In this document: positions 1,876-17,552 of the stretch, piece by piece | How the letters are laid out: each line of letters starts with the position of its first letter | Numbering within the stretch: the first letter of the stretch is position 1 | DNA from: a virus | Strand: one strand, 5' to 3' | Length of the DNA: 18,293 bases | Virus genome (UHGV): UHGV-0114973 | The notes under the pieces: model-generated | Told to the model about the DNA's origin: nothing | Seen by the model: only the letters and a program-made list of their open reading frames with translations | Databases searched by the model: none | Made by a program: the position numbers and the translations under genes

Positions 1876-4791
1876 ATGGCACAATATCCTATTGATATTA
1901 AGATTGATACCGGTTTGGCTGACCGCAATCTTAACAATCTTAACAGTCAGTTAGATCAGACTGAAAAATCAACCATAGCTGCTGCACAGGCTGCTAATCA
2001 GTTATCTGTGGTTGAACAGCAGGTTGCAAAAGCAGCACAGCAACTGGCACAACAACAAGCTAATCAGGCTGCTAAAGCTGTTGCTGTAGCTAGGGCTACG
2101 CGTGAAGCAGCACAGGAACAATCACGCCTGTTAGCAACACAGGGTGCTGCTGCTCGTGCGGCTGGTCAGACTGTTAATAATCAACAGAAATTTGCTGAAT
2201 TAGCCAAAATTATCAAACAAGCAACTGCTGATGAAAAGAAAGCAATTGACGATTTGACTAACAGTCTTAAAAAACTTGATAATCAGCAGAATAACACTAA
2301 TCAATCAACACAAAAAACTAAAGGCGCTCTTGAAACACTTGTCACTGGTGCAAAAGCGTTTGTTGGTTTACAGATTGCAGGGTCACTTTACGACTGGGGT
2401 AAAGCGTTTGTAGATACTGCAACGAAAGTTGAACTGCTACAGAGTCGCATTAATCTGTACACATCAACGTCGGTTGAATCACAACAGATTTTTGCGCAAT
2501 TAGTACAACAGGCTAACCGTGCTGGTACAGATATTGACGCGGTGGCAAACAGTTTTCAGCGTTTTGCCGCTGCTGGTAAAGATGCCGGGATTAGTAATCA
2601 GGTTATTTTACAGTTTACCGACAACCTGCAAAAAATGGCCCGTGTATCTGGTGCATCCAGTGCTGAAGCATCTGCTGCTATTTATCAATTATCACAGGCA
2701 TTTGCATCTGGTCGTTTGCAGGGGGATGAATTCCGATCTGTGTCAGAACAATTACCAACTGTTCTTCAGGTGCTGGCTAAACAAATGGGTGTCACCACGG
2801 GGGAACTTAAACAATTAGGTTCTGATGGTGAAATTACCCGTGATAAATTGTTGCTGTTAAACAACGCGACTGATGAAATCAGCGCACAGTTCGATAAACT
2901 TCCTCGTTCTGTAGATCAGTCTGCCACTGCGTTACGTAACAACCTGTCTGTGGCTATTGCTGAACTCGATCAGCAGATTGGCGCATCTAAATTCCTGGCT
3001 AAATTCCTAGACCTGTTAGCAGGTGGTGTATCGGGTACAACAGAGTTAATAAAAGCCGCTGCAGGTGCTGACAAACTGGCACAAGCCACTAACAATCTGA
3101 ACAGTGTTACCGCAAAACGTGAAGCCAATCTGAAAGAAATTGCAGATCTGGAAGCACAAATTCAGCGTGGGTATACAACACAGTCAATTGGTGGGTATAC
3201 AAAATTTGTTGGTGACACCAGCGCTGCACAGAAGAAATTAAACGAACTTAAAAAACTTGATGTTCAGTTAACAAAACAACAAGCAGAAGCACAACGAGGG
3301 GTTGTTCAGGCTACTCCATTGGGTAAGGGTGTTGCTGAAAATCTTGCAAATCAGGCAAGCACTTTACAGGCGAGTATTACGGCTGCTCAGGCTGCCGGAC
3401 GTCCTGATGCCGAATCTGCAAAACAGATTAAAAACCTGAAAGAACAGATTACCTATACCCAGGCGCTTGCTGACGGTAACTATGAACTGGCAGCAAGTCA
3501 GAAACTGGGTAACAAAGCAACAAAGGAACAGATTGCAGACTACGCTGCGTTGTTGAAACAACAGGCAGAATATAAAGAAAATCAAAAAAACCAGAAGAAA
3601 TCAGCGAGTGCTGAAGCATCTGCGGCTAAACGTGCACAGAAAGAACTGGAACGTAATCAGGCTGCTAACCAGAAATACCTGAAAACGCTTCAGGATAAAA
3701 TCAATGCTGGTAATTATGATGTTCAGTTAGCACGCGAACAGGTTCAGATTGCTTTAACACAGGGATCGTCTGTTGAACAACTTACAGCAACGTATCAGAA
3801 AGAATATCAGGTACGTCAACAGTTAACGCTGGCTTCACAACAGGCGGAAGCACAGTCACGACTGAATAAAGACGCGACTGATGCTGAACGTGCCGCTGTT
3901 GATGCACATGTAGCTGCATTGCAACGTCAACAGCAGATAGCACAGTTAAGCGCAGATGTAAAACAAGTTGACATTGATGTGAAAGCACAGTTGAACCCGT
4001 ATCAATCACAAATTGATCAGGTTAATCAACAGGAAGCAACACGTCTTAGTATTATTCAAACTGCCCGTGAACAAGATTTAATCAACGAGCAACAATACCA
4101 GGATATGAAAACGCAGATTCAACAGGCTGGGGAACAAGCCCGTACGAATCTTGCAAATGCTAACTACAGCTTGTTGCTACAATCCAGTGCTGATTTTTTG
4201 GGTCAAATGGCTGCTGGTCTGGCACAATCTAAAGGTGAGCAATCAAACGCGTATAAAGCGATGTTTGCACTGTCTAAAGCCTTTAGTATCGCACAGGCGA
4301 GTATTAACCTGTGGACAGCCGTTAGTCAGGCTATGGCGTTGCCGTTCCCGGCGAATATTCCGTTCATTGCACAGGCTTTATCATACGGGACAAGCGTATT
4401 AGGTAACATTCAGTCTGTGGCTGCAACAGGTTTTGCAACGGGTGGTTATGTTAAAGGTCCGGGTACAGGTCAGAGTGACAGTATAAACGCACGTTTGAGT
4501 AATGGTGAATTTGTCAGTACCAAACAGGCTACGAGTCGTTATCGTAGCACTCTGGAAGCAATGAATCGTGGGACATACACCCCCGGATCTGAAGGTGGTT
4601 CATCACCTAATATTCAGGTTCATAACTACGGTGGTGAACGTGTTCAGGTGAAACAAGGATTAACACGGGATGATGTAGTGCTTATCATAGGTGAAGAATT
4701 CCCACGACAATCAGCGGCACAATGGAATGACCCGTACAGTCAGACGAATAAAGCGTTCAGGTCTAACTATGATGCGAACAGGAAAATATAA
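1876..4791 (+). CDS. tail tape measure protein
   Basis: 971-aa ORF, very Ala/Gln-rich with long coiled-coil-type heptad stretches and a Gly-rich hydrophobic C-terminal region. Follows the chaperone pair. At about 0.15 nm per residue the length implies a tail of roughly 145 nm (inference). Confidence 0.9.
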   Translation: MAQYPIDIKIDTGLADRNLNNLNSQLDQTEKSTIAAAQAANQLSVVEQQVAKAAQQLAQQQANQAAKAVAVARATREAAQEQSRLLATQGAAARAAGQTVNNQQKFAELAKIIKQATADEKKAIDDLTNSLKKLDNQQNNTNQSTQKTKGALETLVTGAKAFVGLQIAGSLYDWGKAFVDTATKVELLQSRINLYTSTSVESQQIFAQLVQQANRAGTDIDAVANSFQRFAAAGKDAGISNQVILQFTDNLQKMARVSGASSAEASAAIYQLSQAFASGRLQGDEFRSVSEQLPTVLQVLAKQMGVTTGELKQLGSDGEITRDKLLLLNNATDEISAQFDKLPRSVDQSATALRNNLSVAIAELDQQIGASKFLAKFLDLLAGGVSGTTELIKAAAGADKLAQATNNLNSVTAKREANLKEIADLEAQIQRGYTTQSIGGYTKFVGDTSAAQKKLNELKKLDVQLTKQQAEAQRGVVQATPLGKGVAENLANQASTLQASITAAQAAGRPDAESAKQIKNLKEQITYTQALADGNYELAASQKLGNKATKEQIADYAALLKQQAEYKENQKNQKKSASAEASAAKRAQKELERNQAANQKYLKTLQDKINAGNYDVQLAREQVQIALTQGSSVEQLTATYQKEYQVRQQLTLASQQAEAQSRLNKDATDAERAAVDAHVAALQRQQQIAQLSADVKQVDIDVKAQLNPYQSQIDQVNQQEATRLSIIQTAREQDLINEQQYQDMKTQIQQAGEQARTNLANANYSLLLQSSADFLGQMAAGLAQSKGEQSNAYKAMFALSKAFSIAQASINLWTAVSQAMALPFPANIPFIAQALSYGTSVLGNIQSVAATGFATGGYVKGPGTGQSDSINARLSNGEFVSTKQATSRYRSTLEAMNRGTYTPGSEGGSSPNIQVHNYGGERVQVKQGLTRDDVVLIIGEEFPRQSAAQWNDPYSQTNKAFRSNYDANRKI

Positions 4792-5294
4792 TGAGCAATA
4801 CAGATGATTTACCACGGCTTGAGTACGGCGCGAAAATGGTGTTACCTGAGCGTGATAATTACAGTTATAGTCCACCGTGGGGTGTAACTAAATCTGATAT
4901 TTCCGGGACGCTATCACGGTTAGGTCGTAGCGCCTTTGGTGGCCCTGCTCAGGTATCGTGTACAATTCAGTTATATAGTCCTGCGATGCTTCAGTGGTGG
5001 GACGACTTTTATAATCTAGAAATCGCTGAAGGTAGTAAGCGGTTTGTGATGCAACTGTTTGTGAACGGTTTGATTCAGGAACACGTTGTTCAGATTGTCA
5101 GTAACCCGTCGTCCTCTGTTGTAGGATGGAAAGGATCTGTCGATCTACAGTTGCAAGCTGTTCCTGTAATCGACCGTTGCGCAATGGCATCACGATTGTT
5201 AATCACTAAATGCCAGGGTGATTACGCTGCTTGTTACCTTAAAGAAATTATTGATACTGGCCTACTCTTAAATAACGCGTGGACACCAGAATGA
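4791..5294 (+). CDS. minor tail protein (gpM-like position)
   Basis: 167-aa ORF whose ATG overlaps the tape measure TAA by 1 nt (TAATG). Called from position and translational coupling only. Confidence 0.5.
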   Translation: MSNTDDLPRLEYGAKMVLPERDNYSYSPPWGVTKSDISGTLSRLGRSAFGGPAQVSCTIQLYSPAMLQWWDDFYNLEIAEGSKRFVMQLFVNGLIQEHVVQIVSNPSSSVVGWKGSVDLQLQAVPVIDRCAMASRLLITKCQGDYAACYLKEIIDTGLLLNNAWTPE

Positions 5295-5797: not shown

Positions 5798-6153
5798 TCG
5801 GTGATCGCTACGATATTGATAAATGGAATTGTACACACGAGGTTAGTCAGTGGTATCAGGTCCACAACTACCCACACGTATTGAAAACTGTTTCAGGTGA
5901 TGAATGGGATATTGCGTTTGTTCGTTGGATGCGAAAACGTTTTTTACCAATTACCACACCGGAACAAGGTGCACTCGTACTGATGAAGAACAGATATTCA
6001 GGCGGTTTTCATGTCGGCGTGTGGGATTGTGGAATGGTTCATCATTGTTATCAACCACCGGGTGATTCACCGGGACAGACAATCAGATCACCTTTAAGTA
6101 TAATCAAGACAGCACATAAAGAAATCACGTTCTGGAGAATGAAAAGTGTCTAA
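5794..6153 (+). CDS. NlpC/P60-like cysteine peptidase-fold tail assembly/tip protein (gpK-like)
   Basis: 119 aa. Candidate catalytic Cys in WNCTHEV and His in GGFHVGVWD, the spacing typical of NlpC/P60 and CHAP papain-like folds. ATGA overlap with the upstream gene. Position matches lambda K. Confidence 0.55.
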   Translation: MIGDRYDIDKWNCTHEVSQWYQVHNYPHVLKTVSGDEWDIAFVRWMRKRFLPITTPEQGALVLMKNRYSGGFHVGVWDCGMVHHCYQPPGDSPGQTIRSPLSIIKTAHKEITFWRMKSV

Positions 6154-8677
6154 AGTCATCTATCACACTAATCCTGTTGAACACGCTGATAACGTTGACT
6201 TTGGTGAATGGATGCTGAAACGCTGGCCCGTGGGTACAGTTCGTCCGCGTGGGTTACTGATTTATAAAAACGACGAAAACATTACCCAAAAGTGGGTTAC
6301 TGACCCCAGCGTATTGACTGATCCTGATGCTGTTTATCATATTTATGAACTACCAAAAGGTGGAGTGGTTAGTGCAATAACGAAAGTTATTAGCACAATT
6401 TTAAATCCCATTTTAAAATTGTTCATGCCGAATACCAGTGCATCGGCTAATCTTAAGAATTCACGTTCAGCATCGTCTAACAACGCGCTTCAGGGGCGTA
6501 CTAATGCTTCACGACCGGGTGAACGTATTTCTGATATCCGCGGTCGTGTACTGGCATATCCTGACCTGTTAATGGACTACCGAATCTTCATTGACCGAAC
6601 AGAATATGAAGTTCAGTTTCTGTGTCTGGGTGCTGGTGAATACGAAGTCGAAGATGTTCGTGATGGTATTACACCTGCTGTAAATATCAGCGGTGAAAAA
6701 TTAGACTTTTATAAAAAAGGTAATGCACCAGGGTATGGTTCTCCATATATGAATATCGGTGGTGCAATTGATATTAACACTTTTCCGATCATGGTTGCTA
6801 AGTCGTCGAACGAAGCAGACGGATCTGAAGTCAAGCCACCAAACTATGCTGATATCAGCAAAGCGAGTTTTAAAATTTACAGCACTGGTGAAATTGATAC
6901 TACGATTACCAGTGATGATAACACTACGATTGACTGGTCGGAACGTGCACCAATCGGTAGTAAAATTCGTTTATCACAATTTTACAGTTTTACACCTAAT
7001 ACGTTACCGTTAAACACGTATGTACGTAATGACCTGTCCGGTGAATATGATGTTATTTATGCAGGTGAGAATACGTTAATCATTGATACTACTGGTCGTG
7101 AAGGTTGGGATGCTCTGTCTGAAAGTGGTCAGGCTGCATATACACAGGCTTATTTGCGAAACGACGGTTACTGGGAATTTGAAACCACTGAAGGAAGTGG
7201 AAGTATTTTATACAAGTTTTCACCGTCTCTTGACAGTACCACACCGTATATTGTCGGGCCTTATCTGATTGACAGTGCGGATAAGTTGATGATTAATCTT
7301 TATGCACAGAATGGTGTGTATAAAACTGATGGCGACATTTATCCGTTCACCTGTAATTTCCAGGTAGTATTGTCAGACCCGAACGGTGTGAAAGCGAATG
7401 TGACACACTCTATGTCTGTTCGCGGTCGTTATACAGAAGCCGTAGGTAATTCATTAATTGTGGATAACCCTTTTGACGGTCCTGTCAACGTGTCTGTAAG
7501 ACGACTATCAAATACAGATAAAGACTTCGAAGGGTCTGTTGTTGACAACATCAAGTGGCGCGATTTATACGCTATCACGAATGTTTCTCCGCGTTCCTAT
7601 GGTGATGTGACATTGATCCATACAGTGACAAAAGCAACAAACGCTGCACTGAAACAAAAAGAACGTAAATTAAACATGATTGCAACACGTGTGTATAACG
7701 ATGTTGCAAGTAGTAATTTTGCAGACGTTGTAATGTCAATGCACACAGATCCTTTATTTGGTCGTCGCACATTGGACACTATTGATCGCGATGCTTTATA
7801 TGCTGTTCAGGAACAACTTCTTGAATATTTTGGTGACCAACGAGCAATTGAAGTTGGCTATACGTTTGATAATAACAGTACGACGTACGAAGAAGGATTG
7901 GACACTATCTGTAACACGGTGAATGTTAAACCGTATCAGATCGGTAGTGTATTGTATTTCTGGCCTGAATTACCACAGAACCAGTCCGCAATGCAGTTTG
8001 GTCACGCATTTAAGATCCCTGACAGTGATAAACGTACGCGCTCTTTTGCGCCACCTAAAGAATATACTGGTGTTCAGGTTAAATACTTCGATCACGATGA
8101 AAAATCATATTTATACGTAACTAAAGGTGAGGAAACAAACCTCAATAAGATAGATCTTGTCGCATGTCAGTCGCGATATCTTGCAAATATCCGTGCTAAT
8201 CGTGAAATGAATAAGTTACGTTATCAACGTATTACCCACGAGTGTACAGCGCTTAGTATTGGATTACAGGCTACCCCAGGTATGCGAGTGGATATGATTG
8301 ACAATACCCGTATGAAACAACATGAAGGTGTTGTAGTTGACGTTGACGGTTTAACACTTATTCTTAGTGATCCTGTTACGTTCACCACGGGTAATACATA
8401 CAGTATAACATTGACACACCGACTGGGAACACTTGAAAACATTCCTGTAACTGCCGGGGATGATGAGTTTTCCGTGGTGATGGCGTACCAGCCATCTGAA
8501 GAAATTTATACAGGATGGTTGCGTGACCGTACAGCATATGTGATCCGTGCTGATGATGAGCGTAGCAAATTAGCAATGCTTGTTCAGAGTATGGAACCGT
8601 CAGGAAGGGATAATAACTATCAGGTAGGTTTAACGTGCATCAATTACGATGCACGTTATTATCAGGATGATTTATAA
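6146..8677 (+). CDS. tail tip/hub protein (gpJ-like, without a long C-terminal receptor-binding extension)
   Basis: 843-aa ORF starting at a GTG with GGAGA 7 nt upstream, overlapping the previous stop. Large beta-rich protein at the end of the tail assembly operon. Confidence 0.6.
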
Positions 8678-8706
8678 CAAGTTATCTAAGCCGTTGGCTT
8701 GTTTTT

Positions 8707-9096
8707 GTTGCAACATCTGAGCAGTGGAAAGATAAGCAGACAGGAGAAAAGAAAGAGCAGACTGAATGGCATCGCGTGGTCATCTTCGGTAAACTTGCTG
8801 AAGTTGCAGGAGAATATCTTCGTAAAGTCTCGCAGGTGTATATTGAAGGCCAGCTTCGCACTCGTAAATAGACTGACAGCAACGGAGTAGACCGATACAC
8901 TACGGAGATTGTCATTCCACAGATGGGTGGAGTTATGCAGATGCTTGGCGGTAAACGTGATGATTCTGGTCAGCAACCACGCCAGCAACCTAAAGGCGGA
9001 TGGGGAACAAACCCGCAACAGCAGCAACCAAAACAACAAAGACCACAAGGAGGAAATGAGCCTCCGATGGACTTTGTTGACGACATTCCGTTCTGA
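8707..9096 (+). pseudogene. ssb: ssb remnant: 5'-truncated, with an in-frame amber codon at 8869-8871
   Basis: Frame-1 translation reads [81 protein letters not shown]...[16 protein letters not shown]. This is collinear with E. coli and F-plasmid SSB from about residue 37 to the C-terminal DDIPF tip. The conserved Trp codon TGG is replaced by TAG. No start codon and none of the N-terminal OB-fold residues are present. Confidence 0.8.
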
Positions 9097-9106
9097 TGAT
9101 AAATAT

Positions 9107-9126
9107 AACCCCGCCGAAGCGGGGTT
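9107..9126. terminator. bidirectional hairpin terminator between convergent units
   Basis: AACCCCGC, loop CGAA, GCGGGGTT. Flanked by A-rich sequence on the left and TTGTTG on the right, so either strand sees a hairpin followed by a U-rich tract. Sits between the ssb remnant stop (9094-9096) and the tailspike stop (9136). Confidence 0.5.
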
Positions 9127-9135
9127 GTTGAAATA

Positions 9136-11397
9136 TCATGTTATGTTGCCATATGTTGCTGATGATACCTGATTTATCACAGCGGAAGAACCTGAACCTT
9201 TACGTATACCGTTTACATCAGCTGACATTAGTGCCGGTAAGGTTACTTTAGAACTCCCGCCTGCATATCCAAGATTACCCGCTGTTGTACCAGAAGTCCT
9301 AAGGCCAGTTATTAGGAGAGAACCGGCGCTACAAACAAACCCAGAGAAAGGTGCTGCTGGTATACCTTGAATATTAACCAGATCTAAATCTGCAACAGTG
9401 TAATTGCAATTTGAAATTAATGCAGGTATCAAAGACCCATAAACACCTAAACGTAAGCGTACATTAGATGATTGGTTCTTTAGCACCGCAACAGCCGTTT
9501 CAGTGGCGGAAGAGCCTGTCACGTTGTAAACATTGAAATCCAACTTCAGAGGCGCTCCTGGCTTACCCGCAAAACCAGTTGTCGAATCATCAATAAGTCC
9601 GTAATTAACGTTCATTACGTTACCCTGAATTACTCCAGTTGCCCCAGATCCTGGTGAAGCAGGGTTGAACGCAATGGCCCTGTAAGTAACTACGGTAGAT
9701 GATGACTCACCGTTACCTTTAATATTAACATTGGTAATTGAAACTCTGTTATCTATTGTACCAAAGTAAATAGGAGTCGCCGGGCAGGCCTTACTCTCCA
9801 AACCACTAAGGGTTACAAGGTTTATGCCAGTCTGTGTAATCAAAGCGGGCCATGCTGGTATATAATTACCAAATGCTAAATCGGACACCTGGTTAGAGAA
9901 TCCTTTAATAATGGTGCCATTAGACACGCATGAGCTAAAGGCCACTCCGTTCACGCAGTGCTCAACCAATAGATTGCCGAAAAAATGGTCAATAAGTGAC
10001 TCAAACTGGATACCAACACCGCCTCGCCTGACACCATTCGCGTCTGTACGAAGATATTTAAACCCAGCAGACCAAATATCGTATGTATAAACACTATCAG
10101 AGCTGGAGATTAAAAGACCAGCACCAGTGCGTCCCGCCCATCGGGCGTCACCTGTAGCATTAAAATCGTAAAATGTAACTTTAAATCCTTGAAATGTGTG
10201 CATCTCTCCGCTCATGTCACTAAATTCAATCGCGGCATTGCTTTCTTCTGAAGGATTTGTCAGCACAATATAAGACAATCCCATCCCTGCACCAATCATT
10301 CCTCCGCCATTTTTGTTGTAACGAATCGTAGAAGGTGACGTAACGCGATACCATAACTTAAGATGGCTATCTATTCTGTATTTTCCCGGTGAAAGTAGGA
10401 TATATGACTGGAAATACTCGGATTGATAATAGCTGCCAGCAACTACCTCCACGTTAAATTCACCACACGTCGCATGCCATGCTTTATGGAACGCGTCAGT
10501 GCAGTCAATGCTTGAAGCTAACTCATCATAAGTGTTAACTGTTTTTGCTCCGAACCATTCAGGTCTAACAGGTCCCGTTGGAACTTTCACAGATGGTACA
10601 GTTAGATAATTGGCGATAAAATCATCTTCTGTGTCAAATATTTGATAACAACCAGCATCAATTTCTGCATTAAATTTAACGACTGCACCGTTTCTTATTT
10701 TTAATACTGCACCATGAATAAAAGTAACAGGAATATTAAATGTAATGTTTGAATTTATAAGATATGTACCGGGGACAAATACGACAGGATTGCCAGATGA
10801 CGAAAGATTTTCTAGAGCGGCATTTATCCCCGGCGCATCATCAGTGACACCATCACCAGTGACATTAGCCATATCTTTAATTGATATATGCTCAGATAGC
10901 CAATCGTGAACAGTCTTAATTTTAGAACCGTTTATTGGTTGCATGGTTGCTATAAGTGAGTCGCCAAAACCGTCAGCATCTGAACTTAAATTAGCACGCA
11001 ATGAAGCATCACCAACACTAACCCATCCACCAAGACCAATGCCACCAGCAGTTTCCGGAGTTGAACCAGTATCAACTGTTTTAGGAAACTCGCCATCCCA
11101 GCGGTAATATTCACCAGTTGCTTCGTAACGCAATACCTGATTAGGTAATGTAAGTATCGCACCATCTTCGAAGCTATCCATCGTTATATAGCCGACCTGA
11201 GATATAGCCTGATTGTACAGGGTTTCTAAACCATCAAGTGTCTTGTTGGTCACTGATTGACCACGGATCGTATCGGTAACATCCAACGCGTGTTTACCGT
11301 TTTCATCACGACTTTTTGCAACGTGTTCAATATGTAAAATCGCTTGTTTGCCTGTTTTCAAATCATCAGCACTGATATAATCGTTACAGTTAGCCAT
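9136..11397 (-). CDS. tailspike protein, probable polysaccharide depolymerase with a right-handed beta-helix
   Basis: Start taken at the ATG 11397 (MANCNDY...) with GGAGA 7 nt upstream, rather than the TTG at 11424. After an N-terminal module of about 190 aa comes NVTGDGVTDDAPGINAALENLSSSGNPVVFVPGTYLINSNITF, the hallmark start of pectate-lyase-type beta-helix tailspikes. The remainder is Gly/Ser/Asn/Thr-rich. Confidence 0.8.
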   Translation of the reverse strand: MANCNDYISADDLKTGKQAILHIEHVAKSRDENGKHALDVTDTIRGQSVTNKTLDGLETLYNQAISQVGYITMDSFEDGAILTLPNQVLRYEATGEYYRWDGEFPKTVDTGSTPETAGGIGLGGWVSVGDASLRANLSSDADGFGDSLIATMQPINGSKIKTVHDWLSEHISIKDMANVTGDGVTDDAPGINAALENLSSSGNPVVFVPGTYLINSNITFNIPVTFIHGAVLKIRNGAVVKFNAEIDAGCYQIFDTEDDFIANYLTVPSVKVPTGPVRPEWFGAKTVNTYDELASSIDCTDAFHKAWHATCGEFNVEVVAGSYYQSEYFQSYILLSPGKYRIDSHLKLWYRVTSPSTIRYNKNGGGMIGAGMGLSYIVLTNPSEESNAAIEFSDMSGEMHTFQGFKVTFYDFNATGDARWAGRTGAGLLISSSDSVYTYDIWSAGFKYLRTDANGVRRGGVGIQFESLIDHFFGNLLVEHCVNGVAFSSCVSNGTIIKGFSNQVSDLAFGNYIPAWPALITQTGINLVTLSGLESKACPATPIYFGTIDNRVSITNVNIKGNGESSSTVVTYRAIAFNPASPGSGATGVIQGNVMNVNYGLIDDSTTGFAGKPGAPLKLDFNVYNVTGSSATETAVAVLKNQSSNVRLRLGVYGSLIPALISNCNYTVADLDLVNIQGIPAAPFSGFVCSAGSLLITGLRTSGTTAGNLGYAGGSSKVTLPALMSADVNGIRKGSGSSAVINQVSSATYGNIT
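11373..11381 (+). promoter_or_regulatory. candidate extended -10 promoter (TGaTATAAT) for the lysis genes, inside the tailspike 5' coding region
   Basis: TG at 11373-11374 and a perfect TATAAT at 11376-11381, about 40 nt upstream of the ATG at 11424. No good -35 element. The divergent start codons are only 26 bp apart, so a promoter must lie inside a neighbouring gene. Confidence 0.25.
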
Positions 11398-11423
11398 CTT
11401 TAAGTCTCCAGGAGTGTAGAACA

Positions 11424-11702
11424 ATGTCTGATAACCCGGTGTTGAGGTATTGGCCTATAATAGCATTTGTTGCCACGGGGTTGGTAGGTTACGGGGTAAC
11501 TCAAAACCAAATCAATTCTAATGAAAAAGATATTGCAGATGCAAAAACCTATGCGCATGAGGCGCTTAATCTGGCAAAACGAGTGGAATCCCGAGTGGAT
11601 GTTCACGACATCAAAATCGAATATCAGGCCACACAGAACGCTGAAATCCTCACCAGTGTTAAAGAGCTAACACAGTCAACAAATGAAAGCGGAACAACGT
11701 AA
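11424..11702 (+). CDS. small single-pass membrane protein, lysis-associated (holin or antiholin candidate)
   Basis: 92 aa. One N-terminal hydrophobic segment (WPIIAFVATGLVGYGV) followed by a charged helical region. AGGAG 9 nt upstream. Immediately precedes the endolysin gene. Confidence 0.4.
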   Translation: MSDNPVLRYWPIIAFVATGLVGYGVTQNQINSNEKDIADAKTYAHEALNLAKRVESRVDVHDIKIEYQATQNAEILTSVKELTQSTNESGTT

Positions 11703-11717
11703 AACCGGGAGTAAGCA

Positions 11718-12125
11718 ATGAGTAACTTTAAATTCAGTCAGAGAAGTGAAAATAATCTGAAAGGGGTTAACCCGGATCTTGTGAAAATCGTGCGTCGGGC
11801 ACTTCTGTTATCACCCGTTGATTTCGGTATCACAGAAGGTTTACGAACTGTTGAACGACAACGACAACTGGTTGCGGCAGGTAAGAGGCAGACGATGAAC
11901 AGTAGCCATATCACGGGTCATGCTGTTGATGTGTTTGCCTACCCTACATCAGCCGGGTCATGGGAATGGAAATACTACGAACAGATCGCCACTGCATTTA
12001 AACAGGCTGCAAAAGAACTGAATATTCCTGTTGAATGGGGCGGTGACTGGAAAACACTGAAAGATGGTCCACACTTCCAGTTACCATATGCGAAATATCC
12101 GGCGCGAGATAACAATCATGGATAA
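11718..12125 (+). CDS. endolysin, L-alanyl-D-glutamate peptidase (peptidase M15 / VanY-like)
   Basis: 135 aa with SHITGHAVDV and a following Asp/His pattern matching the zinc-binding motifs of T5-type M15 endolysins. GGGAG ribosome-binding site. Followed by holin and spanin genes. Confidence 0.85.
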   Translation: MSNFKFSQRSENNLKGVNPDLVKIVRRALLLSPVDFGITEGLRTVERQRQLVAAGKRQTMNSSHITGHAVDVFAYPTSAGSWEWKYYEQIATAFKQAAKELNIPVEWGGDWKTLKDGPHFQLPYAKYPARDNNHG

Positions 12126-12348
12126 GTTCAGCATTTTACGTAACACAACCGGAGGGATCTCTTTAAGCCGCGCACAAGCGGCTTTAGGCTTCCTCGTGGT
12201 AACAGGGATTCTGATTTATCAGGCCGTGGACCGCACACTTGATGATACAGTGCTGTTAACCTATTTCGGTTTCTGTATAGGTCAGTATGTTGGTGCTAAA
12301 AAAATCGCTGTAGATAAACAACGAGGTACGCCAAATGACAACCCGTAG
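12118..12348 (+). CDS. putative holin (two predicted transmembrane segments)
   Basis: Start taken at the ATG 12118 (MDKFSIL...), which overlaps the endolysin stop (ATGGATAA). 76 aa with hydrophobic segments AALGFLVVTGILIY and LLTYFGFCIGQYVG. Confidence 0.5.
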   Translation: MDKFSILRNTTGGISLSRAQAALGFLVVTGILIYQAVDRTLDDTVLLTYFGFCIGQYVGAKKIAVDKQRGTPNDNP

Positions 12349-12733
12349 TGTGTTAATCACCGTTGTTGCAACTGTTCTGGTATTAGGCGCTGGTGCGTAC
12401 ACGTGTTACCACGCGGGATATAAAGCACGGGCAAATGAAGAACGTCAGGAACGTTTAGAGGATGCACAACGGGAACAACAACGGTTAAAAGCACAACAGG
12501 AATTGGCTGATGATGTACTTCGTGGTTTAGCTGACTGGTCGCAGAATACTAAAATCGTGGAAATACGACATGAAAAGACTAATACTGTTTTTCGTAACGA
12601 GTGTCTTACTTCTGAATATCAACGCTTGTACAACGAACGAGTTACCGAAGCAGAAGCCCGTTTATCAGGCCGCATTAGTTCAGAAGTGTCAGACCGAAAA
12701 CCTTCCACGGCTGAACGGTCTGACAGGAAGTGA
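12335..12733 (+). CDS. i-spanin (Rz-like inner-membrane spanin subunit)
   Basis: 132 aa. N-terminal transmembrane segment (VLITVVATVLVLGAGAY) followed by a charged coiled-coil periplasmic region. Contains an out-of-frame o-spanin ORF. Confidence 0.65.
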   Translation: MTTRSVLITVVATVLVLGAGAYTCYHAGYKARANEERQERLEDAQREQQRLKAQQELADDVLRGLADWSQNTKIVEIRHEKTNTVFRNECLTSEYQRLYNERVTEAEARLSGRISSEVSDRKPSTAERSDRK

Positions 12734-12818
12734 TTCAACAGATGTTAATGACCAGTGGTTAGATATTTATTTCAAATGTGCAACTATTCACAACGCATTA
12801 GTAGACAGTCTTCAGTAA
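12570..12818 (+). CDS. o-spanin (Rz1-like outer-membrane lipoprotein), overlapped arrangement
   Basis: 82 aa starting in the +1 frame inside the i-spanin gene and running 85 nt past its stop. Signal peptide MKRLILFFVTSVLLLNINAC with a lipobox-like Cys, though Asn at position -2 is atypical. Confidence 0.65.
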   Translation: MKRLILFFVTSVLLLNINACTTNELPKQKPVYQAALVQKCQTENLPRLNGLTGSDSTDVNDQWLDIYFKCATIHNALVDSLQ

Positions 12819-13031
12819 ATCTTCAACCGATACTTCAATCCACGATGCGGGAACCGGATATTCAGTCCGGTACATGAACAAGGATGTTCCTATCAACCCG
12901 TGTGGATCTGTTTTAATCCCTCGCATGTTCAACAATGGAAAAAACTGTTCGCGTGTTTGTGGCAATCTTGCAAAGCGTCCTGTCGGGCGTTTAGCAGGAT
13001 CCATAGGGTTGAATTCAACGATTGTGGACAT
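12798..13031 (-). CDS. hypothetical protein (77 aa), last gene of the minus-strand operon
   Basis: ATG at 13031-13029 with AGGAG 8 nt upstream. Overlaps the Dam-like gene's 3' end by 17 nt and the o-spanin 3' end convergently by 21 nt. Confidence 0.4.
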   Translation of the reverse strand: MSTIVEFNPMDPAKRPTGRFARLPQTREQFFPLLNMRGIKTDPHGLIGTSLFMYRTEYPVPASWIEVSVEDLLKTVY

Positions 13032-13536
13032 AACAATAACTCCTGTACGCTTGTCTTTTTATTTTCTGATAGTCGGAAACTTTTACAGATCTTGTTTTAC
13101 ATTCACCAATACGATGTGGGTCGAAAATAAACATCATCTGTGAACGGTCATTTCCTCCTGCTGGTAACCCGGTGTCAGGGTCTACAAACGCTATACGGCC
13201 TTTAAACACCCATAGTTCCGAACAATGTGTCAGTGCTTTGTGAAACCAGTCTGCAGACGTCATAGCGTTCACGAGTAATAACGAACCAGTTCCCTGATGA
13301 ACAGTGGTTATTATTTTATTAACCCAGGGAGACGGATCGCTATACGGTGGGTTGCACCAGACGAACCCACCACCATTACTTTGAACAATCGAATGCCAGT
13401 CTTTATTCAGACTATCAGTGATAAATAACGAACATTTAGCGTTAGAACCATCGGTACACACATCAAGAACAAGTGGGAATTCACGAGAAACGTTATCAAT
13501 AAAATCCCACGGTGTTTCCCAGTTGTCTTTAGCCAT
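13015..13536 (-). CDS. phage Dam-like DNA N6-adenine methyltransferase (orphan)
   Basis: Motifs WETPWDF, LDVCT, the catalytic CNPPYS (the N6-adenine methyltransferase DPPY-type motif) and WFHK. Start taken at the ATG 13536 (MAKDNWETPWDF) rather than the TTG at 13596. No restriction enzyme partner is visible. Confidence 0.8.
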   Translation of the reverse strand: MAKDNWETPWDFIDNVSREFPLVLDVCTDGSNAKCSLFITDSLNKDWHSIVQSNGGGFVWCNPPYSDPSPWVNKIITTVHQGTGSLLLVNAMTSADWFHKALTHCSELWVFKGRIAFVDPDTGLPAGGNDRSQMMFIFDPHRIGECKTRSVKVSDYQKIKRQAYRSYCYVHNR

Positions 13537-13882
13537 GTTCCGGTACGCTCTCCACACTGTAATAAACGGGGATGCCCAGACGTTCAGCTTCTGCAATTTC
13601 TGCTAGCGTACCAGACGAACGACGATAATCAGGAAGCACCAGAACAGCGTCACAGCGGCGCATAATTTCTAACGTACCTGATAGGTAGTATTCAGGTTGT
13701 ATATTGCGTAAACCGCCGTCAAAATCCCACAATTCGGTGTTCTTGTGAGGAATAACCGGGAACCATCCCGGACGTTGTAAAGCCAGTCGTTTACCTGCCT
13801 GTTCAGCGCGTGACACGTTACGGGATGTTTTAAGCGCACAATCAGCACGATAAGGCCCGGCAATGTAACAGAGTTTAATCAT
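13529..13882 (-). CDS. nucleoside 2-deoxyribosyltransferase-like (NDT / DUF1937-type fold) protein
   Basis: Start taken at the ATG 13882 (MIKLCYIAGPY...) with AGGAAA 6 nt upstream. N-terminal YIAGP motif and a later D...SSGTLAEIAEAERLGIPVYY segment match my recollection of the two signature segments of the deoxyribosyltransferase / Rcl-type Rossmann fold. Overlaps both neighbours by 8 nt. Confidence 0.6.
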   Translation of the reverse strand: MIKLCYIAGPYRADCALKTSRNVSRAEQAGKRLALQRPGWFPVIPHKNTELWDFDGGLRNIQPEYYLSGTLEIMRRCDAVLVLPDYRRSSGTLAEIAEAERLGIPVYYSVESVPEHG

Positions 13883-14210
13883 GGTTGTTTTCCTGCATCT
13901 GTAAGAACACAATCATTGCGGCACGGAGTGGGTTAGCGTGAGAACAATAAATTGTAGGTTCGTTAATCATATCCCAACCACATTGATCAAATTCAAAATC
14001 ACCCCAGGCTAACCATTCGTTTTCATTAGTGTCAAACGCAATGCTAATCTTATTTTCAATAATAATCGGCATTGCGTCTGTAGGGTTATTGCAGTAATCA
14101 ACTACTTGATTCACCAGTTCCAGACGATGTTCGTGTGATGGTTCACCGTATAATTTACGACTAACCATTGCGTTGATTGAAATATCACTTAAAACACTGT
14201 AATCAGTCAT
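13875..14210 (-). CDS. small strongly acidic protein (111 aa), DNA-mimic / anti-restriction candidate
   Basis: ATG at 14210-14208 with GAGGGAA upstream, overlapping the previous stop (ATGACTGA). I count about 18 Asp+Glu against 5 Lys+Arg, so the predicted pI is near 4. No recognisable catalytic motif. Confidence 0.5.
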   Translation of the reverse strand: MTDYSVLSDISINAMVSRKLYGEPSHEHRLELVNQVVDYCNNPTDAMPIIIENKISIAFDTNENEWLAWGDFEFDQCGWDMINEPTIYCSHANPLRAAMIVFLQMQENNHD

Positions 14211-14739
14211 GACGATTCATTCCCTCTAACATGTCCCAGATAAGCGCAACACGGCGCGGATCCGTGCTGATAGTGTGTAAAGTTTCACACCCGTAATGCC
14301 ATCCCCAGCGAACGGATAGTTCTGACAACAGGTAACCACGGGAATTAGCCAGCTCAGCCAGTTCACCGGGTTTAAATGTCGTTGTATTAGGTTCTGTAAG
14401 AACACGAGTACCACAGATAGCGTCACTGATGCGCCACGGTTTCATCAGGTCATCAACCTTATACCAGTTACTGATACTGATTTCAGACGTTCCCCAGCGT
14501 GCAGCCAGTTTCAGACGTTCCTGACGGGCCGGGAACATTGGCATCTGTGGTAAACGCAGTTGGATCTGTTCTGCAGGTTCAAACATGTCGTCGTCTGTTA
14601 AACGAAATTCACCACGGTCATCAATATAAAAACCACGGGAACGACCATCACGGGTGAACCCGTCAACACGGTTGTAAATTTTACCGGGAGTAAAGACACC
14701 AATCGGTGAACCAGCTACAAATTTGTGTGAAGTATGCAT
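14203..14739 (-). CDS. hypothetical protein (178 aa)
   Basis: ATG at 14739-14737 with GAGG 8 nt upstream, 39 bp downstream of the PolB stop. Coding-quality ORF translationally coupled to the next gene. No family recognised by eye. Confidence 0.5.
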   Translation of the reverse strand: MHTSHKFVAGSPIGVFTPGKIYNRVDGFTRDGRSRGFYIDDRGEFRLTDDDMFEPAEQIQLRLPQMPMFPARQERLKLAARWGTSEISISNWYKVDDLMKPWRISDAICGTRVLTEPNTTTFKPGELAELANSRGYLLSELSVRWGWHYGCETLHTISTDPRRVALIWDMLEGMNRHD

Positions 14740-14778
14740 TGTTATCGCCTCAATAAGTTTTAAATAATTCTATACGGT

Positions 14779-16635
14779 TTACCGAAGTGGTGCAACGAGT
14801 TTTTCAGCTTCTTTGATGTAAAAATCATAATTGAGCGTTGCCCGGTTAAAACGTTTCATGTCGTTACATTCCGTGGTCAACCAACCTTTGCACACGGACA
14901 TACGGCGCTCAGGCGCGTCAGGGTTCAGTTTCAGTGATTTTGCCAGCGGTGGCATGACTTTTGTCAAAGGTGCACCATCTGTACTGACGTAATAACGGGT
15001 AATGTTCTGAACCTGTTTATCACCCCATAGTAATTTGCTGTTACGTGGTACTTTCGTCACTAACATGAAATCGTGAATATCTTCGTGTGATGTTATAAAA
15101 TCACGAATGTCTTTATTGTGTACCAGTGCTGCTTCAGCCGCTTTTGCGACAACCTGCATACTGTGGTTTTGATGCCAACCCAGATCAACGCTGTGACAAT
15201 AAGCGCCTTTACGTTTAACTTTCTTACCGCCTTCGTAAACAGCGATGTAATTATTTACATCGCGGATAAACATCACGTCATAAATTGCTTCTTCAAGCTG
15301 GAGTCTGGTTAATTTTTCCCACGCGTGACGAACCTGTTCTACTTGTCCGGTAAACACTCGTGGCACGTAAACCGTAAGACCATCTGTGTTAGCCTGGATC
15401 ATGGACAAACCAGGGATTTTCAGAAGTTCTTCAGCCAACATACACAAAAGTAACTGTCCGTTAATCGTAATAGCCATTGTGTAAGCAGGATCGTAGAATG
15501 GACTGTATACGTTATTACTGTCACCATACACACCGTTTAACGCCAGTTTTAACATTGCATTTTCTGGTGTACCTTTCGGGTAACTGGAACGCATGTCGTA
15601 AACATTTTTATAAATGGTGCAAAATTGTTTTCCCAGATGTGCCGGATAAAGTTCATTACTGATCGCAAGGTTCGGATAAAAACTGGCAACGTCCAGATCG
15701 ATGATCACATAATTTTCAGTGGACCTGATAGTTTGAGACTCAATAGACCCGTGGATACCACCCGTACCAAAATCAAACGAGAACCCGTTAATGTCTGCGC
15801 TTAAATCTGTGAATACACCTTTTGTTTCAGTGATAACCTGTTGACGTAACCAGTTAAGAACACGATTAAATTCAGGCTGTTCAAAACGGACATAAGGGAA
15901 AATCACACTGTTCAATGCGATTGATGGTCTGTGCGTCTGTCGTGGTTTTCTGCTACCCGGTTCGAAACATTGAATACCTGATTTTTCAAGTTCCATGATG
16001 AAATATTCTTTACCGATTTTCGTGTCGTTATGGTTCATGAAATTACGACCGTATTTAGCAGAAAGTTCACGACGAAAATCTATCAGCTTTTTACTGTGTT
16101 TATAAAACATCAAAGTCGCTTTCAAATCGTGCATCAGATATTGACGAAGCGTATCAATTTGAGAATCGGTTAAATAAGTCCCTGGCGTAAACGGAAGGTC
16201 TTCAATGTTTTCCATTCTCATATTGAATTCAAGTGTTTTCAGACTTGTTCGTTTTGCCTGATTGTCGAAATGATGAATTTTATACAAATCAAGCTGGGGA
16301 ACTATCCAGTCTTTTTCCCACACCATATGAGCAAAACGATTTTCATCACCAGCGTTAATTATTGAATCACCTTTTTTATAAATGTCTGCGTTGGTGATAT
16401 ACATGATGTTGTTCAAAATAGAATGCTGAACAGGATAGTCGTAACCCAGATTGTTATAACCAATTTCTTCAGCACGATGTTCACGCAAATATTCTGTGAA
16501 CAGGTAAAAAGCCTGACGATCATCGCGACGATGTGAAATCTCAAAAATATAAGGCGTTTCGGTTAACGCGTGAATAGCACCGAACAGAAAAACATTAGGA
16601 TAGTTTTCAATATCGTGAACGTAAGCATCTGACAT
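14779..16635 (-). CDS. compact family-B DNA polymerase with a 3'-5' exonuclease domain
   Basis: 618 aa. Exo I D8-I-E10; Exo II N62-L-G-Y-D66; Exo III Y166-L-M-H-D170 (spacing close to phi29 DNA polymerase); motif A D315-V-A-S-F-Y-P (Dx2SLYP-type); motif B K363-L-A-L-N-G-V-Y-G (Kx3NSxYG-type); motif C N416-T-D418 (an NTD variant of DTD). Motifs are only 48 and 55 aa apart and no TPR-like insertions are evident. Confidence 0.7.
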   Translation of the reverse strand: MSDAYVHDIENYPNVFLFGAIHALTETPYIFEISHRRDDRQAFYLFTEYLREHRAEEIGYNNLGYDYPVQHSILNNIMYITNADIYKKGDSIINAGDENRFAHMVWEKDWIVPQLDLYKIHHFDNQAKRTSLKTLEFNMRMENIEDLPFTPGTYLTDSQIDTLRQYLMHDLKATLMFYKHSKKLIDFRRELSAKYGRNFMNHNDTKIGKEYFIMELEKSGIQCFEPGSRKPRQTHRPSIALNSVIFPYVRFEQPEFNRVLNWLRQQVITETKGVFTDLSADINGFSFDFGTGGIHGSIESQTIRSTENYVIIDLDVASFYPNLAISNELYPAHLGKQFCTIYKNVYDMRSSYPKGTPENAMLKLALNGVYGDSNNVYSPFYDPAYTMAITINGQLLLCMLAEELLKIPGLSMIQANTDGLTVYVPRVFTGQVEQVRHAWEKLTRLQLEEAIYDVMFIRDVNNYIAVYEGGKKVKRKGAYCHSVDLGWHQNHSMQVVAKAAEAALVHNKDIRDFITSHEDIHDFMLVTKVPRNSKLLWGDKQVQNITRYYVSTDGAPLTKVMPPLAKSLKLNPDAPERRMSVCKGWLTTECNDMKRFNRATLNYDFYIKEAEKLVAPLR

Positions 16636-16656
16636 AATAAAACCCTGATAAGTAAA

Positions 16657-16674
16657 TGGGGCACTATGGCCCCA
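16657..16674 (-). other. hairpin between the 273-aa gene and the PolB gene
   Basis: TGGGGC, loop ACTATG, GCCCCA. On the minus strand it is followed by TTTACTTATCAGGGTTTTATT directly before the PolB ATG. May act as an attenuator or processing site. Confidence 0.3.
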
Positions 16675-16715
16675 TGTCTGTTTAAAGCGGTATATCGTCC
16701 CAGTTCCAGTAACTA

Positions 16716-17537
16716 TCAGTAACCGTTACCGTTGAGAAAATTCGGGGCCGGGGTGGTCATTACCATATAACCATTAGCAATCAGTTGTTCATCGTTCCAA
16801 CCTTGCGCAATAAACTGTTCGTAAGTTGCACCACCTGCTTTTTCAGTCATTACTTTTACAGGTGCTGCCGCTGGTGTAGGCGCTGCTACAGGTGCTGCCG
16901 CTGGTGTAGGCGCTGCTACAGGTGCTGCCGCTGGTGTTACGCCGATCGGACGTGCACCTTCAGGCATTGCAGGAGCAGCGCCAAACACAGAGGCAGGAGC
17001 CGGACCGGAAATGATTTCTTCACCCGCATAAAGCAATTGCGCCATTTCCATGTTGATATACACACCAGCCTGGTTACCTGTACGACCGTTTGCAACAGAT
17101 GATCCGCTGATACGGTAGTAATAACCTTTTTTCGCCAGATTTTTATCAATAACTGGCTGGTACGCTGCGTTATAAACCGGACACGCGTCAATAGCCACGT
17201 TGCGTGAGAAACCAATTACCCAGTGACCAGCATAACCAGTTTTACTCGCATGTTTCGGATCATCACCGTTAATAATTTTCCATGCGAAAGTAGGTTGTTG
17301 TGGTTCGCCGTTCACATAGTGTGAGTTCGCCGCTCGCATAATCGCCTGGAATACCGCACCCAGTTCACCTTGTTCTTCCCACCAGTTCGCCGCTGTTTTA
17401 GGAAACGCCAGACCAACCCACCAGTTGTGTTTTTCAGGTGCTAACGGTTTATTTTCGTGGTCATGAGTGTTGATATCGAAAAAAGAACCGCCAACCAGAC
17501 GACCAACCGGAGTTACAAAAGATTCTTTCTGTGCCAT
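16716..17537 (-). CDS. replication-associated protein with a PA-rich repeat linker; possibly an ssDNA-binding protein
   Basis: 273 aa with AGAAGG ribosome-binding site 8 nt upstream. The N-terminus MAQKESFVTPVG loosely resembles the start of T7 gp2.5-type SSBs, which is weak evidence. Three tandem PAAAPVAAPT units form a linker before a short C-terminal domain. Sits directly upstream of PolB in the same operon. Confidence 0.45.
   Translation of the reverse strand: MAQKESFVTPVGRLVGGSFFDINTHDHENKPLAPEKHNWWVGLAFPKTAANWWEEQGELGAVFQAIMRAANSHYVNGEPQQPTFAWKIINGDDPKHASKTGYAGHWVIGFSRNVAIDACPVYNAAYQPVIDKNLAKKGYYYRISGSSVANGRTGNQAGVYINMEMAQLLYAGEEIISGPAPASVFGAAPAMPEGARPIGVTPAAAPVAAPTPAAAPVAAPTPAAAPVKVMTEKAGGATYEQFIAQGWNDEQLIANGYMVMTTPAPNFLNGNGY
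16861..16937. repeat. 30-bp tandem repeat, about 2.6 copies
   Basis: GGTGCTGCCGCTGGTGTAGGCGCTGCTACA occurs at 16861-16890 and 16891-16920, with a partial third copy at 16921-16937. It lies inside the 273-aa gene and encodes the PAAAPVAAPT repeats. Confidence 0.9.
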
Positions 17538-17552
17538 GTTATTAACCTTCTT

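Follow-up and report, generated by a model that had tools for sequence, protein, structure and literature searches.

Evidence for an imported beta-helix module on the tailspike of a 9NA-like siphophage

The gene studied here very probably encodes the tailspike of a 9NA-like siphophage, with an anchor (residues 1-130) that belongs to the phage backbone and an imported beta-helix module (residues 131-753) whose likeliest substrate is O-antigen. By the same reading, the spike would be the sole determinant of host range and its module would be exchanged by recombination between two arms. Tailspikes decide the strain range of phages, and it is this part that is exchanged when phages are engineered for new targets. 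This locus supplies exact natural swap breakpoints in a siphophage, codon ~131 and the terminator, and its flanks keep a clear trace of spike swapping between unrelated phages. As a protein, the spike is a typical representative of a familiar class: it leaves the understanding of tailspikes unchanged, and its architecture has already been described for 9NA-like phages. Positions refer to the window, which is the whole 18,293-nucleotide stretch of virus genome UHGV-0114973 that was analyzed. The features are listed in Table 1.

Table 1. Features of the tailspike locus, in window coordinates
Feature	Positions	Strand	Basis
J-like tail tip/hub, 843 aa, lacking a central fibre or receptor-binding C-terminus	6146..8677	+	NF040662, hhalign, Foldseek
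N-terminally truncated pseudogene of a bacterial-type ssb, with a TAG in frame at 8869-8871	8702..9096	+	Alignment to Skatevirus ssb
Tract of 2041 bp shared at 90.5% identity with E. coli Gamaleyavirus (N4-like) contig L010	9067..11106	-	blastn and alignment
GC-rich terminator hairpin between ssb remnant and tailspike stop codon	9107..9126		Terminator scan
Tailspike gene, 753 aa	9136..11397	-	ORF; Pfam PF18668 and PF12708; PHROG tail fibre/spike families; locus shared with 9NA gp55 and Solent gp63
aa 176-753, right-handed parallel beta-helix; receptor-binding, presumed glycanase body	9136..10872	-	AF2, Foldseek
aa 131-175, linker/neck, moving with the receptor-binding module	10873..11007	-	Breakpoint at 5' edge
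aa 63-130, Tail_spike_N (TSP1/gp66-type) domain	11008..11211	-	PF18668, E 1.2e-16 (aa 64-130)
aa 1-62, lineage-specific N-terminus, presumed virion anchor	11212..11397	-	Conservation in five relatives
RBS, GGAGA, 7 nt upstream of the ATG	11405..11409	-	Read from sequence

Phage lineage and the tailspike gene

Sequence comparison assigned the phage to the 9NA-like (Sashavirus/Nonanavirus) siphophages. Its backbone DNA was 94-96% identical to that of Solent, BDX09P1, AVIO78A and PJ16, and the gene order agreed with 9NA and Solent. The phage is known here from a metagenome contig, and its host is most likely E. coli in the human gut. Placed in inverted orientation between the lysis cassette and the tip gene, at the locus of 9NA gp55, Solent gp63 and their counterparts in Sasha and Bas82 (Bas82_0055), and encoding a homologous N-terminal anchor, the gene qualifies as the orthologue of the 9NA-like tailspikes. 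The original prediction had singled out its convergent encoding relative to the tail operon. This orientation is real but nothing special, as it is the conserved 9NA-like layout, kept in 9NA, Solent, Bas82 and PJ16. A local inversion was rejected as its cause because these phages have the same layout.

The program-made ORF list opens the gene at a TTG (9136-11424, minus strand). We set this start aside and kept the one proposed originally, the ATG at 11397, which is assigned as the true start because GGAGA lies ahead of it and the relatives have the same first residues: MANCNDYISADDLK is the shared protein beginning in all five (Solent, 9NA, Bas82, PJ16 and BDX09P1). Each of the five also carries a GGAG-like purine-rich element at the RBS position, in the form GGAGA in Bas82, PJ16 and BDX09P1 and as a variant in Solent and 9NA. 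The tailspike gene is intact. Its exact 753-residue protein was found on three independent ENA metagenome contigs, two of which match the window at 100% identity across 11.1-11.7 kb.

Architecture of the spike

Against the same five relatives, the first 30 residues were 93-100% identical and residues 31-62 were 74-88% identical. A second role of the DNA in this near-perfectly conserved start, such as promoter activity towards the divergent lysis cassette that lies 26 bp off, was considered and rejected: a six-phage alignment showed that codons 1-30 of Solent and 9NA vary at third positions in the usual synonymous way, so selection on the protein explains the conservation. Residues 1-62 were modelled by AF2 (monomer) with low confidence, and a PDB search with this segment (query to residue 67) returned zero matches at E<=10. 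The Tail_spike_N domain that follows had a pLDDT of 77-85 and lies inside a PDB sequence match to Sf11 gp13 (9occ_G; E 1.6e-40, query residues 53-160, aligned to gp13 residues 46-150). Low pLDDT returned over residues 130-174.

The original prediction had called the protein a beta-helix tailspike from a GDGVTDD...GTYLI signature and had proposed structure prediction with a Foldseek comparison as the check. Both bore it out. The AF2 monomer had a mean pLDDT of 81, with blocks mostly at 83-97 over residues 181-753. The best Foldseek matches of the beta-helix in the PDB were CBA120 TSP1, TSP3 and TSP4, phi29 gp12 and the HK620 and Sf6 tailspikes (probability 1.0), with GH87 and RbmB also reaching probability 1.0, and tailspike beta-helices again ranked first against viral models. 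The signature itself was located at residues 181-187 and 210-214, within an above-cut-off match to PF12708 (residues 178-227, E 4e-8) that corresponds to the N-terminal cap. The protein thus combines the two marks of the pectate-lyase-like tailspike class, a right-handed parallel beta-helix body and a separate N-terminal particle-binding module (residues 1-130; PF18668). By analogy with every solved tailspike, it would be a homotrimer.

The whole model matched CBA120 TSP1 (PDB 4oj5/4oj6) best (E 4e-12), a protein that likewise has Tail_spike_N followed by a beta-helix. It differs in sequence (13-16% identity, with a low whole-chain TM score) and in setting, as it belongs to a myovirus whose four spikes form a branched complex. 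Beyond the cap, residues 231-753 matched no curated family in Pfam (at E<=10) or NCBIfam. They also matched no solved structure by sequence, since PDB matches end at residue 237 and the best one at residue 160. Only about 30 related clusters were found among 1.84 billion representatives. The module represents an uncharacterized beta-helix family, one that probably cleaves E. coli O-antigen and could serve in serotyping or as an enzyme.

The module boundary

Comparison of N-terminal and C-terminal conservation across relatives, another check proposed at the outset, located the boundary of the module. DNA homology with the 9NA-like relatives stops at 10999-11006, identity to relatives after residue 130 is 11-31%, and conservation among proteins with unrelated anchors starts at residue ~131. 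These positions place the exchange boundary at residue ~131 (nucleotide ~11000, between VSVGDA and SLR), right after Tail_spike_N. Residues 1-130 alone go with the phage backbone, while residues 131-175 are part of the imported module. An N-terminal module of about 190 residues had been expected: a separate anchor does exist, but it is shorter, as both the end of DNA homology and the drop in identity show.

9NA gp55, the single receptor-binding protein of its virion, illustrates the break. It is 80% identical over residues 1-135, which is all that tblastn aligns, and only 11-20% identical after residue 130. The receptor-binding bodies of gp55 and its counterparts in Solent, Sasha and Bas82 are unrelated to the one found here, and close relatives by the 9NA-type N-terminus carry the P22-type endorhamnosidase domain PF09251, to which this spike gave no match. 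The Sf11 tailspike gp13 also has a different, Sf6/P22-like body.

Recurrence of the module in unrelated phages

The original prediction that this is an exchangeable module held up well, since the same body occurs behind different anchors and closely similar DNA occurs in an unrelated phage. Residues 131-753 recur behind PF09008 (P22 head-binding), PF03906 (T7-fibre), PF12571 (P2-fibre) and PF18668 anchors. One and the same module thus serves virions of the siphovirus, N4-like, P22-like and T7-like types.

The tract shared with contig L010, whose backbone is 93-96% identical to Gamaleyavirus phages, covers residues ~98-753 and runs on through the terminator into the final ~10 codons of ssb. The L010 tailspike (P0002, gp66/gp63.1-type) also has a Tail_spike_N domain and is 89% identical in amino acids over 92% of the query. 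It differs in its N-terminal anchor (MNELFSQGG...), in its podovirus virion and in being paired with a second spike of 1023 residues. Tailspikes of E. coli P22-like prophages carry the same module at 70-82% amino acid identity (P0006, with 86% identical module DNA; the P0011 cluster, including WP_071974544.1 of FORC_041; and JNE082640, OX21:H19). These differ in having the PF09008 domain in place of residues 1-130 and in belonging to temperate, chromosomally integrated podoviruses. Only two complete E. coli genomes contained a homologue, at 72% nucleotide identity, and one of them is the strain of serotype OX21:H19. At 70% amino acid identity, this strain gives a lead on the O-serotype rather than a specificity call.

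The ssb remnant and the exchange cassette

An ssb remnant beside the tailspike had been read as a recombination scar. The scar is genuine, and we found the remnant to be a real pseudogene that matches a junction in Skatevirus. It lacks the first ~32-36 codons, has neither the intact OB fold nor the open frame of a bacterial-type SSB, and is 85-87% identical in nucleotides to codons ~33-168 of Skatevirus ssb. The in-frame TAG is not a sequencing error, since it was present in all three contigs; Bas82 has TGG at this position. The phage encodes its own gp2.5-like SSB at 16716-17537.

Skatevirus has the order ssb, terminator and convergent tailspike, with both arms homologous to the window, and the terminator found here is homologous both to the one annotated after Skate ssb and to a hairpin after G7C gp63.1. 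Remnants of the ssb tail or the terminator also lie behind the tailspike genes of L010, G7C and SP5M. No ssb remnant was found at this locus in 9NA, Solent or PJ16. Because the remnant matches the Skatevirus ssb-terminator-tailspike junction, it is best read as having hitch-hiked with an earlier cassette, the import of which would have brought that junction from a Skatevirus-like phage and left the ssb pseudogene behind. The module itself would be swapped by homologous recombination, with two conserved stretches serving as arms: the Tail_spike_N coding sequence up to the boundary described above and, downstream of the tailspike stop codon, the terminator plus the 3' tail of ssb.

A broader version of this model can be put forward tentatively, although we lean slightly against it. 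The Tail_spike_N coding sequence (5' arm) and the terminator with the last bacterial-type ssb codons (3' arm) may delimit a portable tailspike cassette by which Skatevirus, 9NA-like siphophages and the N4-like podophages of Gamaleyavirus trade receptor-binding modules, the one here being a rare, uncharacterized glycanase family with an undescribed E. coli O-antigen specificity.

The tail tip protein

The neighboring tip protein was said to be J-like without a receptor-binding extension, and the searches agreed. It scored 295.8 bits against the NCBIfam TipJ family NF040662 (cut-off 140), and hhalign aligned residues 396-784 to lambda J 128-551 with a probability of 98.4%. The best sequence and fold match was Sf11 gp14 (Foldseek E 1e-48), followed by lambda J (E 1e-24 to 1e-28; fold matches 8k35, 8xcg and 8iyk). 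The hub core is thus shared with lambda J, but the alignment stops at J residue 551 (tip residue 784 of 843), and no C-terminal central fibre with a receptor-binding domain was found. Since the tip ends near lambda J residue ~600, the distal FNIII, fibre and LamB-binding parts of J are missing. The N-terminal part also differs, at ~395 residues compared to 128 in J. A length of ~840 residues is usual in close homologues (at least 49% identical), and distant ones are longer. One relative's tip bears an additional SGNH esterase.

The Sf11 tail (a Shigella siphophage; PDB 9occ, with gp13 as tailspike and gp14 as hub) differs in how its spike docks, through a DTP adaptor helix bundled with the N-terminal helices of the spike, for which no counterpart was detected here. 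Spike residues 1-62 had no similarity to the gp13 N-terminal helices or the DTP adaptor, and the 167-residue protein encoded after the tape measure gene (4791-5294) and the next two tail proteins had none to any 9occ chain.

Receptor and mechanism

In the proposed mechanism, residues 1-62 and Tail_spike_N would hold the spike at the tail tip, where it would surround the fibreless J-like hub. The long beta-helix, joined on by a flexible linker, would bind surface polysaccharide along a groove and then cleave it, and cleavage would lower the tip onto the outer membrane. There, LPS alone would trigger DNA ejection as it does for 9NA. If LPS alone is enough and is cleaved by the spike, the spike would be the only host-range determinant. 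It is the only predicted receptor-binding protein. One tailspike with a J-like hub, and O-antigen as the sole receptor, have already been described for the 9NA-like group (PMC11990801).

The spike could instead perform only a primary, reversible step, with the tip protein reading a second receptor. About 270 tip residues (~120-395) have no lambda J counterpart, the tip model gave weak Foldseek matches to CBM6, CBM35 and CBM16 (E ~0.02, probability 0.4-0.9), and the esterase on a relative's tip would also fit such a role. This seems quite unlikely, because protein-free LPS is sufficient for tailspike binding and full DNA ejection in 9NA, and the CBM matches are below significance. Moreover, O16-dependent relatives such as Bas82 appear to have a single receptor-binding protein, and Sf11, with its homologous tip, needs full-length LPS but not OmpA, OmpC or OmpF.

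The preferred reading, a spike that cleaves its receptor, also requires that the beta-helix is an enzyme. Its top structural matches share only 10-16% identity with it, have low whole-chain TM scores and include hydrolases as well as lyases and epimerases, so they do not decide between hydrolase and lyase and their catalytic residues cannot be transferred. [quoted passage not shown] However, those proteins are fibres and not beta-helix spikes, and the close structural matches of this module are all enzymes. In homologues down to 29% identity, E479 is invariant and D255, D258, D259, D434, D452 and D470 are at least 90% conserved, as expected of an active site. An adhesin is thus very unlikely.

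For an enzymatic spike, E. coli O-antigen is the most likely target. The fold does not separate O-antigen from capsule as a substrate, and Klebsiella relatives of this phage group have spikes at the same locus, with capsule-targeting tailspikes noted in Klebsiella siphoviruses classed with Nonanavirus (PMC11990801). A depolymerase for capsule (K antigen) or another exopolysaccharide, as in those phages, is nevertheless unlikely here. The backbone is nearest to Salmonella and E. coli members rather than Klebsiella ones, and the module has its nearest homologues in Gamaleyavirus phages of E. coli and in P22-like prophages of E. coli and Salmonella, which as groups use O-antigen. The prophage homologue in FORC_041 adjoins an acyltransferase gene, which is typical of O-antigen seroconversion.

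Results

The 18.3-kb window was assigned by megablast to the 9NA-like siphophages (Sashavirus/Nonanavirus). It shares 94-96% identity with Salmonella phage Solent, Sashavirus BDX09P1, and two E. coli phages, AVIO78A and PJ16, and ~81% with 9NA; these alignments span 64-80% of its length. The window is itself an ENA metagenome contig. Its tailspike protein is also encoded by two contigs from different samples, one of them labelled human gut, and both match the window at 100% identity, over 11.1 and 11.7 kb. Its gene order is that of annotated relatives. The tailspike gene does run convergently to the tail operon, as originally predicted, but this is not peculiar to the phage, since 9NA, Solent, Bas82, and PJ16 all keep the spike gene in reverse orientation between their tail operon and lysis cassette.

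Features of the window, with coordinates and strand
Feature	Position	Strand
Tail tube, chaperones, tape measure, three small tail proteins, tip protein		+
Variable slot between tail tube and chaperone genes (87-aa ORF)	684-955	-
Tape measure gene	1876-4791	+
Tape measure, variable middle	2039-3420	
Tip protein gene	6146-8677	+
Tip protein aa 1-395	6146-7330	
ssb remnant	8702-9096	+
In-frame TAG in ssb remnant	8869-8871	
Terminator hairpin	9107-9126	
Tailspike, lone gene on this strand there	9136-11397	-
Tail_spike_N coding region homologous to Skatevirus	11000-11193	
Lysis cassette	11424-12818	+
Replication genes	13015-18215	-
Dam-type methyltransferase gene	13015-13548	-
T7 gp2.5-like protein gene	16716-17537	-

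The tailspike ORF is real, and its start codon is the ATG at 11397, as seen from a GGAGA 7 nt upstream and the same MANCNDYISADDLK opening in all five relatives. The tailspike and holin start codons diverge only 26 bp apart (11397-11424), so the promoters of both must sit within adjoining coding sequence; a search there for a sigma-70-like site found none. The GDGVTDD...GTYLI signature was confirmed in an intact ORF at aa 181-187 and 210-214, both within a PF12708 match (aa 178-227). Pfam also places Tail_spike_N (PF18668, E 1.2e-16) at aa 64-130; beyond this domain, the pectate-lyase-like fold is matched only at its cap. All PHROG matches were to tail fibre or spike families and ended by aa ~248.

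An AlphaFold2 model of the tailspike (28-sequence alignment, mean pLDDT 81, pTM 0.74) was confident and nearly all beta over aa ~176-753, with low confidence at aa 1-68 and 130-174. The top Foldseek match in the PDB was CBA120 TSP1 (E 4e-12), followed by TSP3, TSP4, phi29 gp12, GH87 glucanases, RbmB lyase, and the HK620 and Sf6 tailspikes. All are right-handed beta-helices at 10-16% identity, and the viral model library agreed with this picture. These matches thus confirm the originally predicted beta-helix fold, yet one without a close structural relative. The best PDB sequence match was Sf11 gp13 (9occ_G, E 1.6e-40, aa 53-160); nearly all such matches were N-terminal and none extended beyond aa 237. 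When aa 231-753 were searched exhaustively with HMMER against 1.84 billion representative proteins, only 30 related clusters were found. The region has no Pfam cover even at E<=10 and none in NCBIfam, so the receptor-binding body belongs to a small, uncurated family. Among homologues down to 29% identity, E479 is invariant and D255, D258, D259, E280, D434, D452, and D470 are at least 90% conserved, making these eight residues candidates for the active site. As read from the sequence, aa 277-312 (VRPEWFGAK...AFHKAW) look like a second beta-helix cap motif, and the helix may therefore be bipartite.

An N-terminal anchor of about 190 aa had been proposed, with a comparison of N- and C-terminal conservation across relatives as the check. 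This comparison was run, and three independent measures agree on a module boundary at aa ~131 instead. DNA homology to Solent, 9NA, Bas82, and BDX09P1 picks up again at nt 10999-11006, or codon 131-133. At the protein level, five relatives match the tailspike at 93-100% identity over aa 1-30, 74-88% over aa 31-62, and 45-88% over aa 63-130, but at only 11-31% over aa 131-175. Finally, conservation among 28 homologues with unrelated N-termini starts at 'SLRANLSS'. These measures assign aa 1-130 to the phage backbone, while the linker at aa 131-175 moves with the beta-helix. The exception is PJ16, where the break comes earlier, near aa 56.

The aa 131-753 module was found behind several different anchors, as expected of an exchangeable module. 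These are the P22 head-binding domain (P0006, 82% identity, and P0011, 70% identity, the latter standing for 51 clustered E. coli sequences), the T7 tail-fibre N-terminus (P0010, Enterobacter kobei), a P2-type fibre N-terminus (P0027), and other Tail_spike_N anchors (P0002 and P0003). The module is also carried by phage Arya and by JN03, a 158-kb myophage. A contig (L010) whose backbone shares 93-96% identity with the Gamaleyavirus (N4-like) phages of E. coli matches window 9067-11106 at 90.5% nt identity over 2041 bp, and its spike gene adjoins a second, 1023-aa spike. The E. coli P22-like prophage encoding P0006 matches at 86% nt identity over 1.5 kb and has flanks 100% identical to E. coli. 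At the nucleotide level, these tracts are direct evidence that the module passed fairly recently between phages of three kinds: siphovirus, N4-like podovirus, and temperate P22-like. The sequences also point to E. coli as the host of the window phage.

The recombination scar predicted beside the tailspike was also found, and its donor type can be named. The ssb remnant is 85-87% identical to the Skatevirus bacterial-type ssb from ~codon 33 to the stop, and the terminator hairpin extends this homology. An in-frame TAG at the SSB Trp position is common to all three metagenome contigs, where Bas82 has TGG. Phages Skate and Seszw_1 are arranged as ssb(+), terminator, tailspike(-), and tip(-), with the terminator between convergent genes. 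One side of this junction, ssb plus terminator, is homologous to the window, and so is the other, the Tail_spike_N coding region (76-78% nt). The remnant is shared by the window, Bas82, BDX09P1, and 536P12, whose spike bodies differ, and is absent from Solent, 9NA, and PJ16. The simplest history would be that an ancestor of this four-phage sub-lineage acquired a tailspike cassette from a Skatevirus-like donor through one crossover in Tail_spike_N and one illegitimate crossover inside ssb. Since the four share the remnant and differ in spike body, subsequent swaps would have replaced only the segment from the terminator to codon ~131.

In contig L010, the spike gene is likewise followed by the terminator and ~10 ssb codons. 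The published N4-like phages G7C and SP5M also carry short Skatevirus-type ssb-tail/terminator remnants shortly downstream of their tailspike genes. In G7C, the hairpin (61200-61233) directly follows gp63.1, is 97% identical over 34 nt, and coincides with a 16-bp 'repeat_region' annotated by its authors on both sides of that gene. In SP5M, the ssb tail (62141-62190) lies ~130 nt past the spike gene. The flank therefore seems to move together with spike modules. Separately, the window encodes its own T7 gp2.5-like ssDNA-binding/annealing protein (phrog_7011, E 9e-94), so the ssb fragment is redundant and dispensable. A tandem AAPVAAPTPA repeat lies close to the C-terminus of the gp2.5-like protein.

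The description of the 843-aa tip protein as J-like and lacking a receptor-binding extension was correct. It passes the NCBIfam TipJ model (295.8 bits, cut-off 140, aa 377-840), and in a profile comparison its aa 396-784 correspond to aa 128-551 of lambda J (98.4% probability), so that it stops near J residue ~600. In contrast to lambda J, it has no counterpart of the distal fibre or LamB-binding domain. Its AF2 model (pLDDT 84) best matched Sf11 gp14 (E 1e-48), followed by lambda J, T1 tip, and T5 pb3. Close homologues (at least 49% identical) are usually ~840 aa and distant ones longer; a tip of this form is typical of the 9NA-like group.

Within tip aa 1-395, ~270 residues have no lambda J counterpart, and aa 71-117 are a low-confidence segment of the model. 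Weak Foldseek matches to CBM6, CBM35, and CBM16 (E ~0.02) hint that the hub may carry a glycan-binding domain. A tip relative (P0128, 80% identical) has an added C-terminal GDSL/SGNH esterase (aa 850-1033 of 1048), so in some 9NA-like phages the hub bears an enzyme of its own, which may be an O-antigen deacetylase.

Other loci also vary. At 13032-13548, DNA homology to Solent and 9NA is absent; the window has a 173-aa Dam-type methyltransferase (PF05869, phrog_111), whereas they have a ~390-aa COG0863-type methylase. It is a second swapped module. The slot between the tail tube and chaperone genes looks like a moron locus: its ORF belongs to phrog_27467 (unknown function), while Solent has a 207-aa ORF and PJ16 a 'superinfection immunity protein'. 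The tape measure middle is colinear with Solent (96%) and lacks DNA homology to BDX09P1 and PJ16, with flanks 94-97% identical. The PJ16 gene as annotated is correspondingly shorter.

Discussion

The observation is real, and the original prediction was essentially right. The tailspike/J-like-hub architecture is already described for the 9NA-like group; what the present analysis adds is the precise position of the breakpoints, the DNA tract shared between phage families, and where the ssb scar came from.

9NA tailspikes bind O-antigen-bearing LPS, and protein-free LPS suffices for DNA ejection. Total dependence on O16 O-antigen holds for Bas82 and for further small siphoviruses in which a single spike sits beside a J-like hub (PMC11990801). 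Sf11, with a homologous hub and spike neck, requires full-length LPS, and OmpA, OmpC, and OmpF are all dispensable. The Sf11 docking mode, sought in the tailspike N-terminus and tail proteins, was without sequence support here. In the mechanism we propose, tailspike trimers would dock via aa 1-62, and E. coli O-antigen would be bound and cleaved along the beta-helix. Cleavage would let the hub reach the membrane, triggering ejection. O-antigen is favoured over capsule as the predicted target because the nearest homologues come from Gamaleyavirus phages and P22-like prophages of E. coli.

In E. coli FORC_041, an acyltransferase-family gene (L009, 7852-8844) comes straight after the P22-like prophage tailspike homologue, which suggests seroconversion of the O-antigen that spike recognises. 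The other complete genome carrying the prophage-type spike is an OX21:H19 STEC strain.
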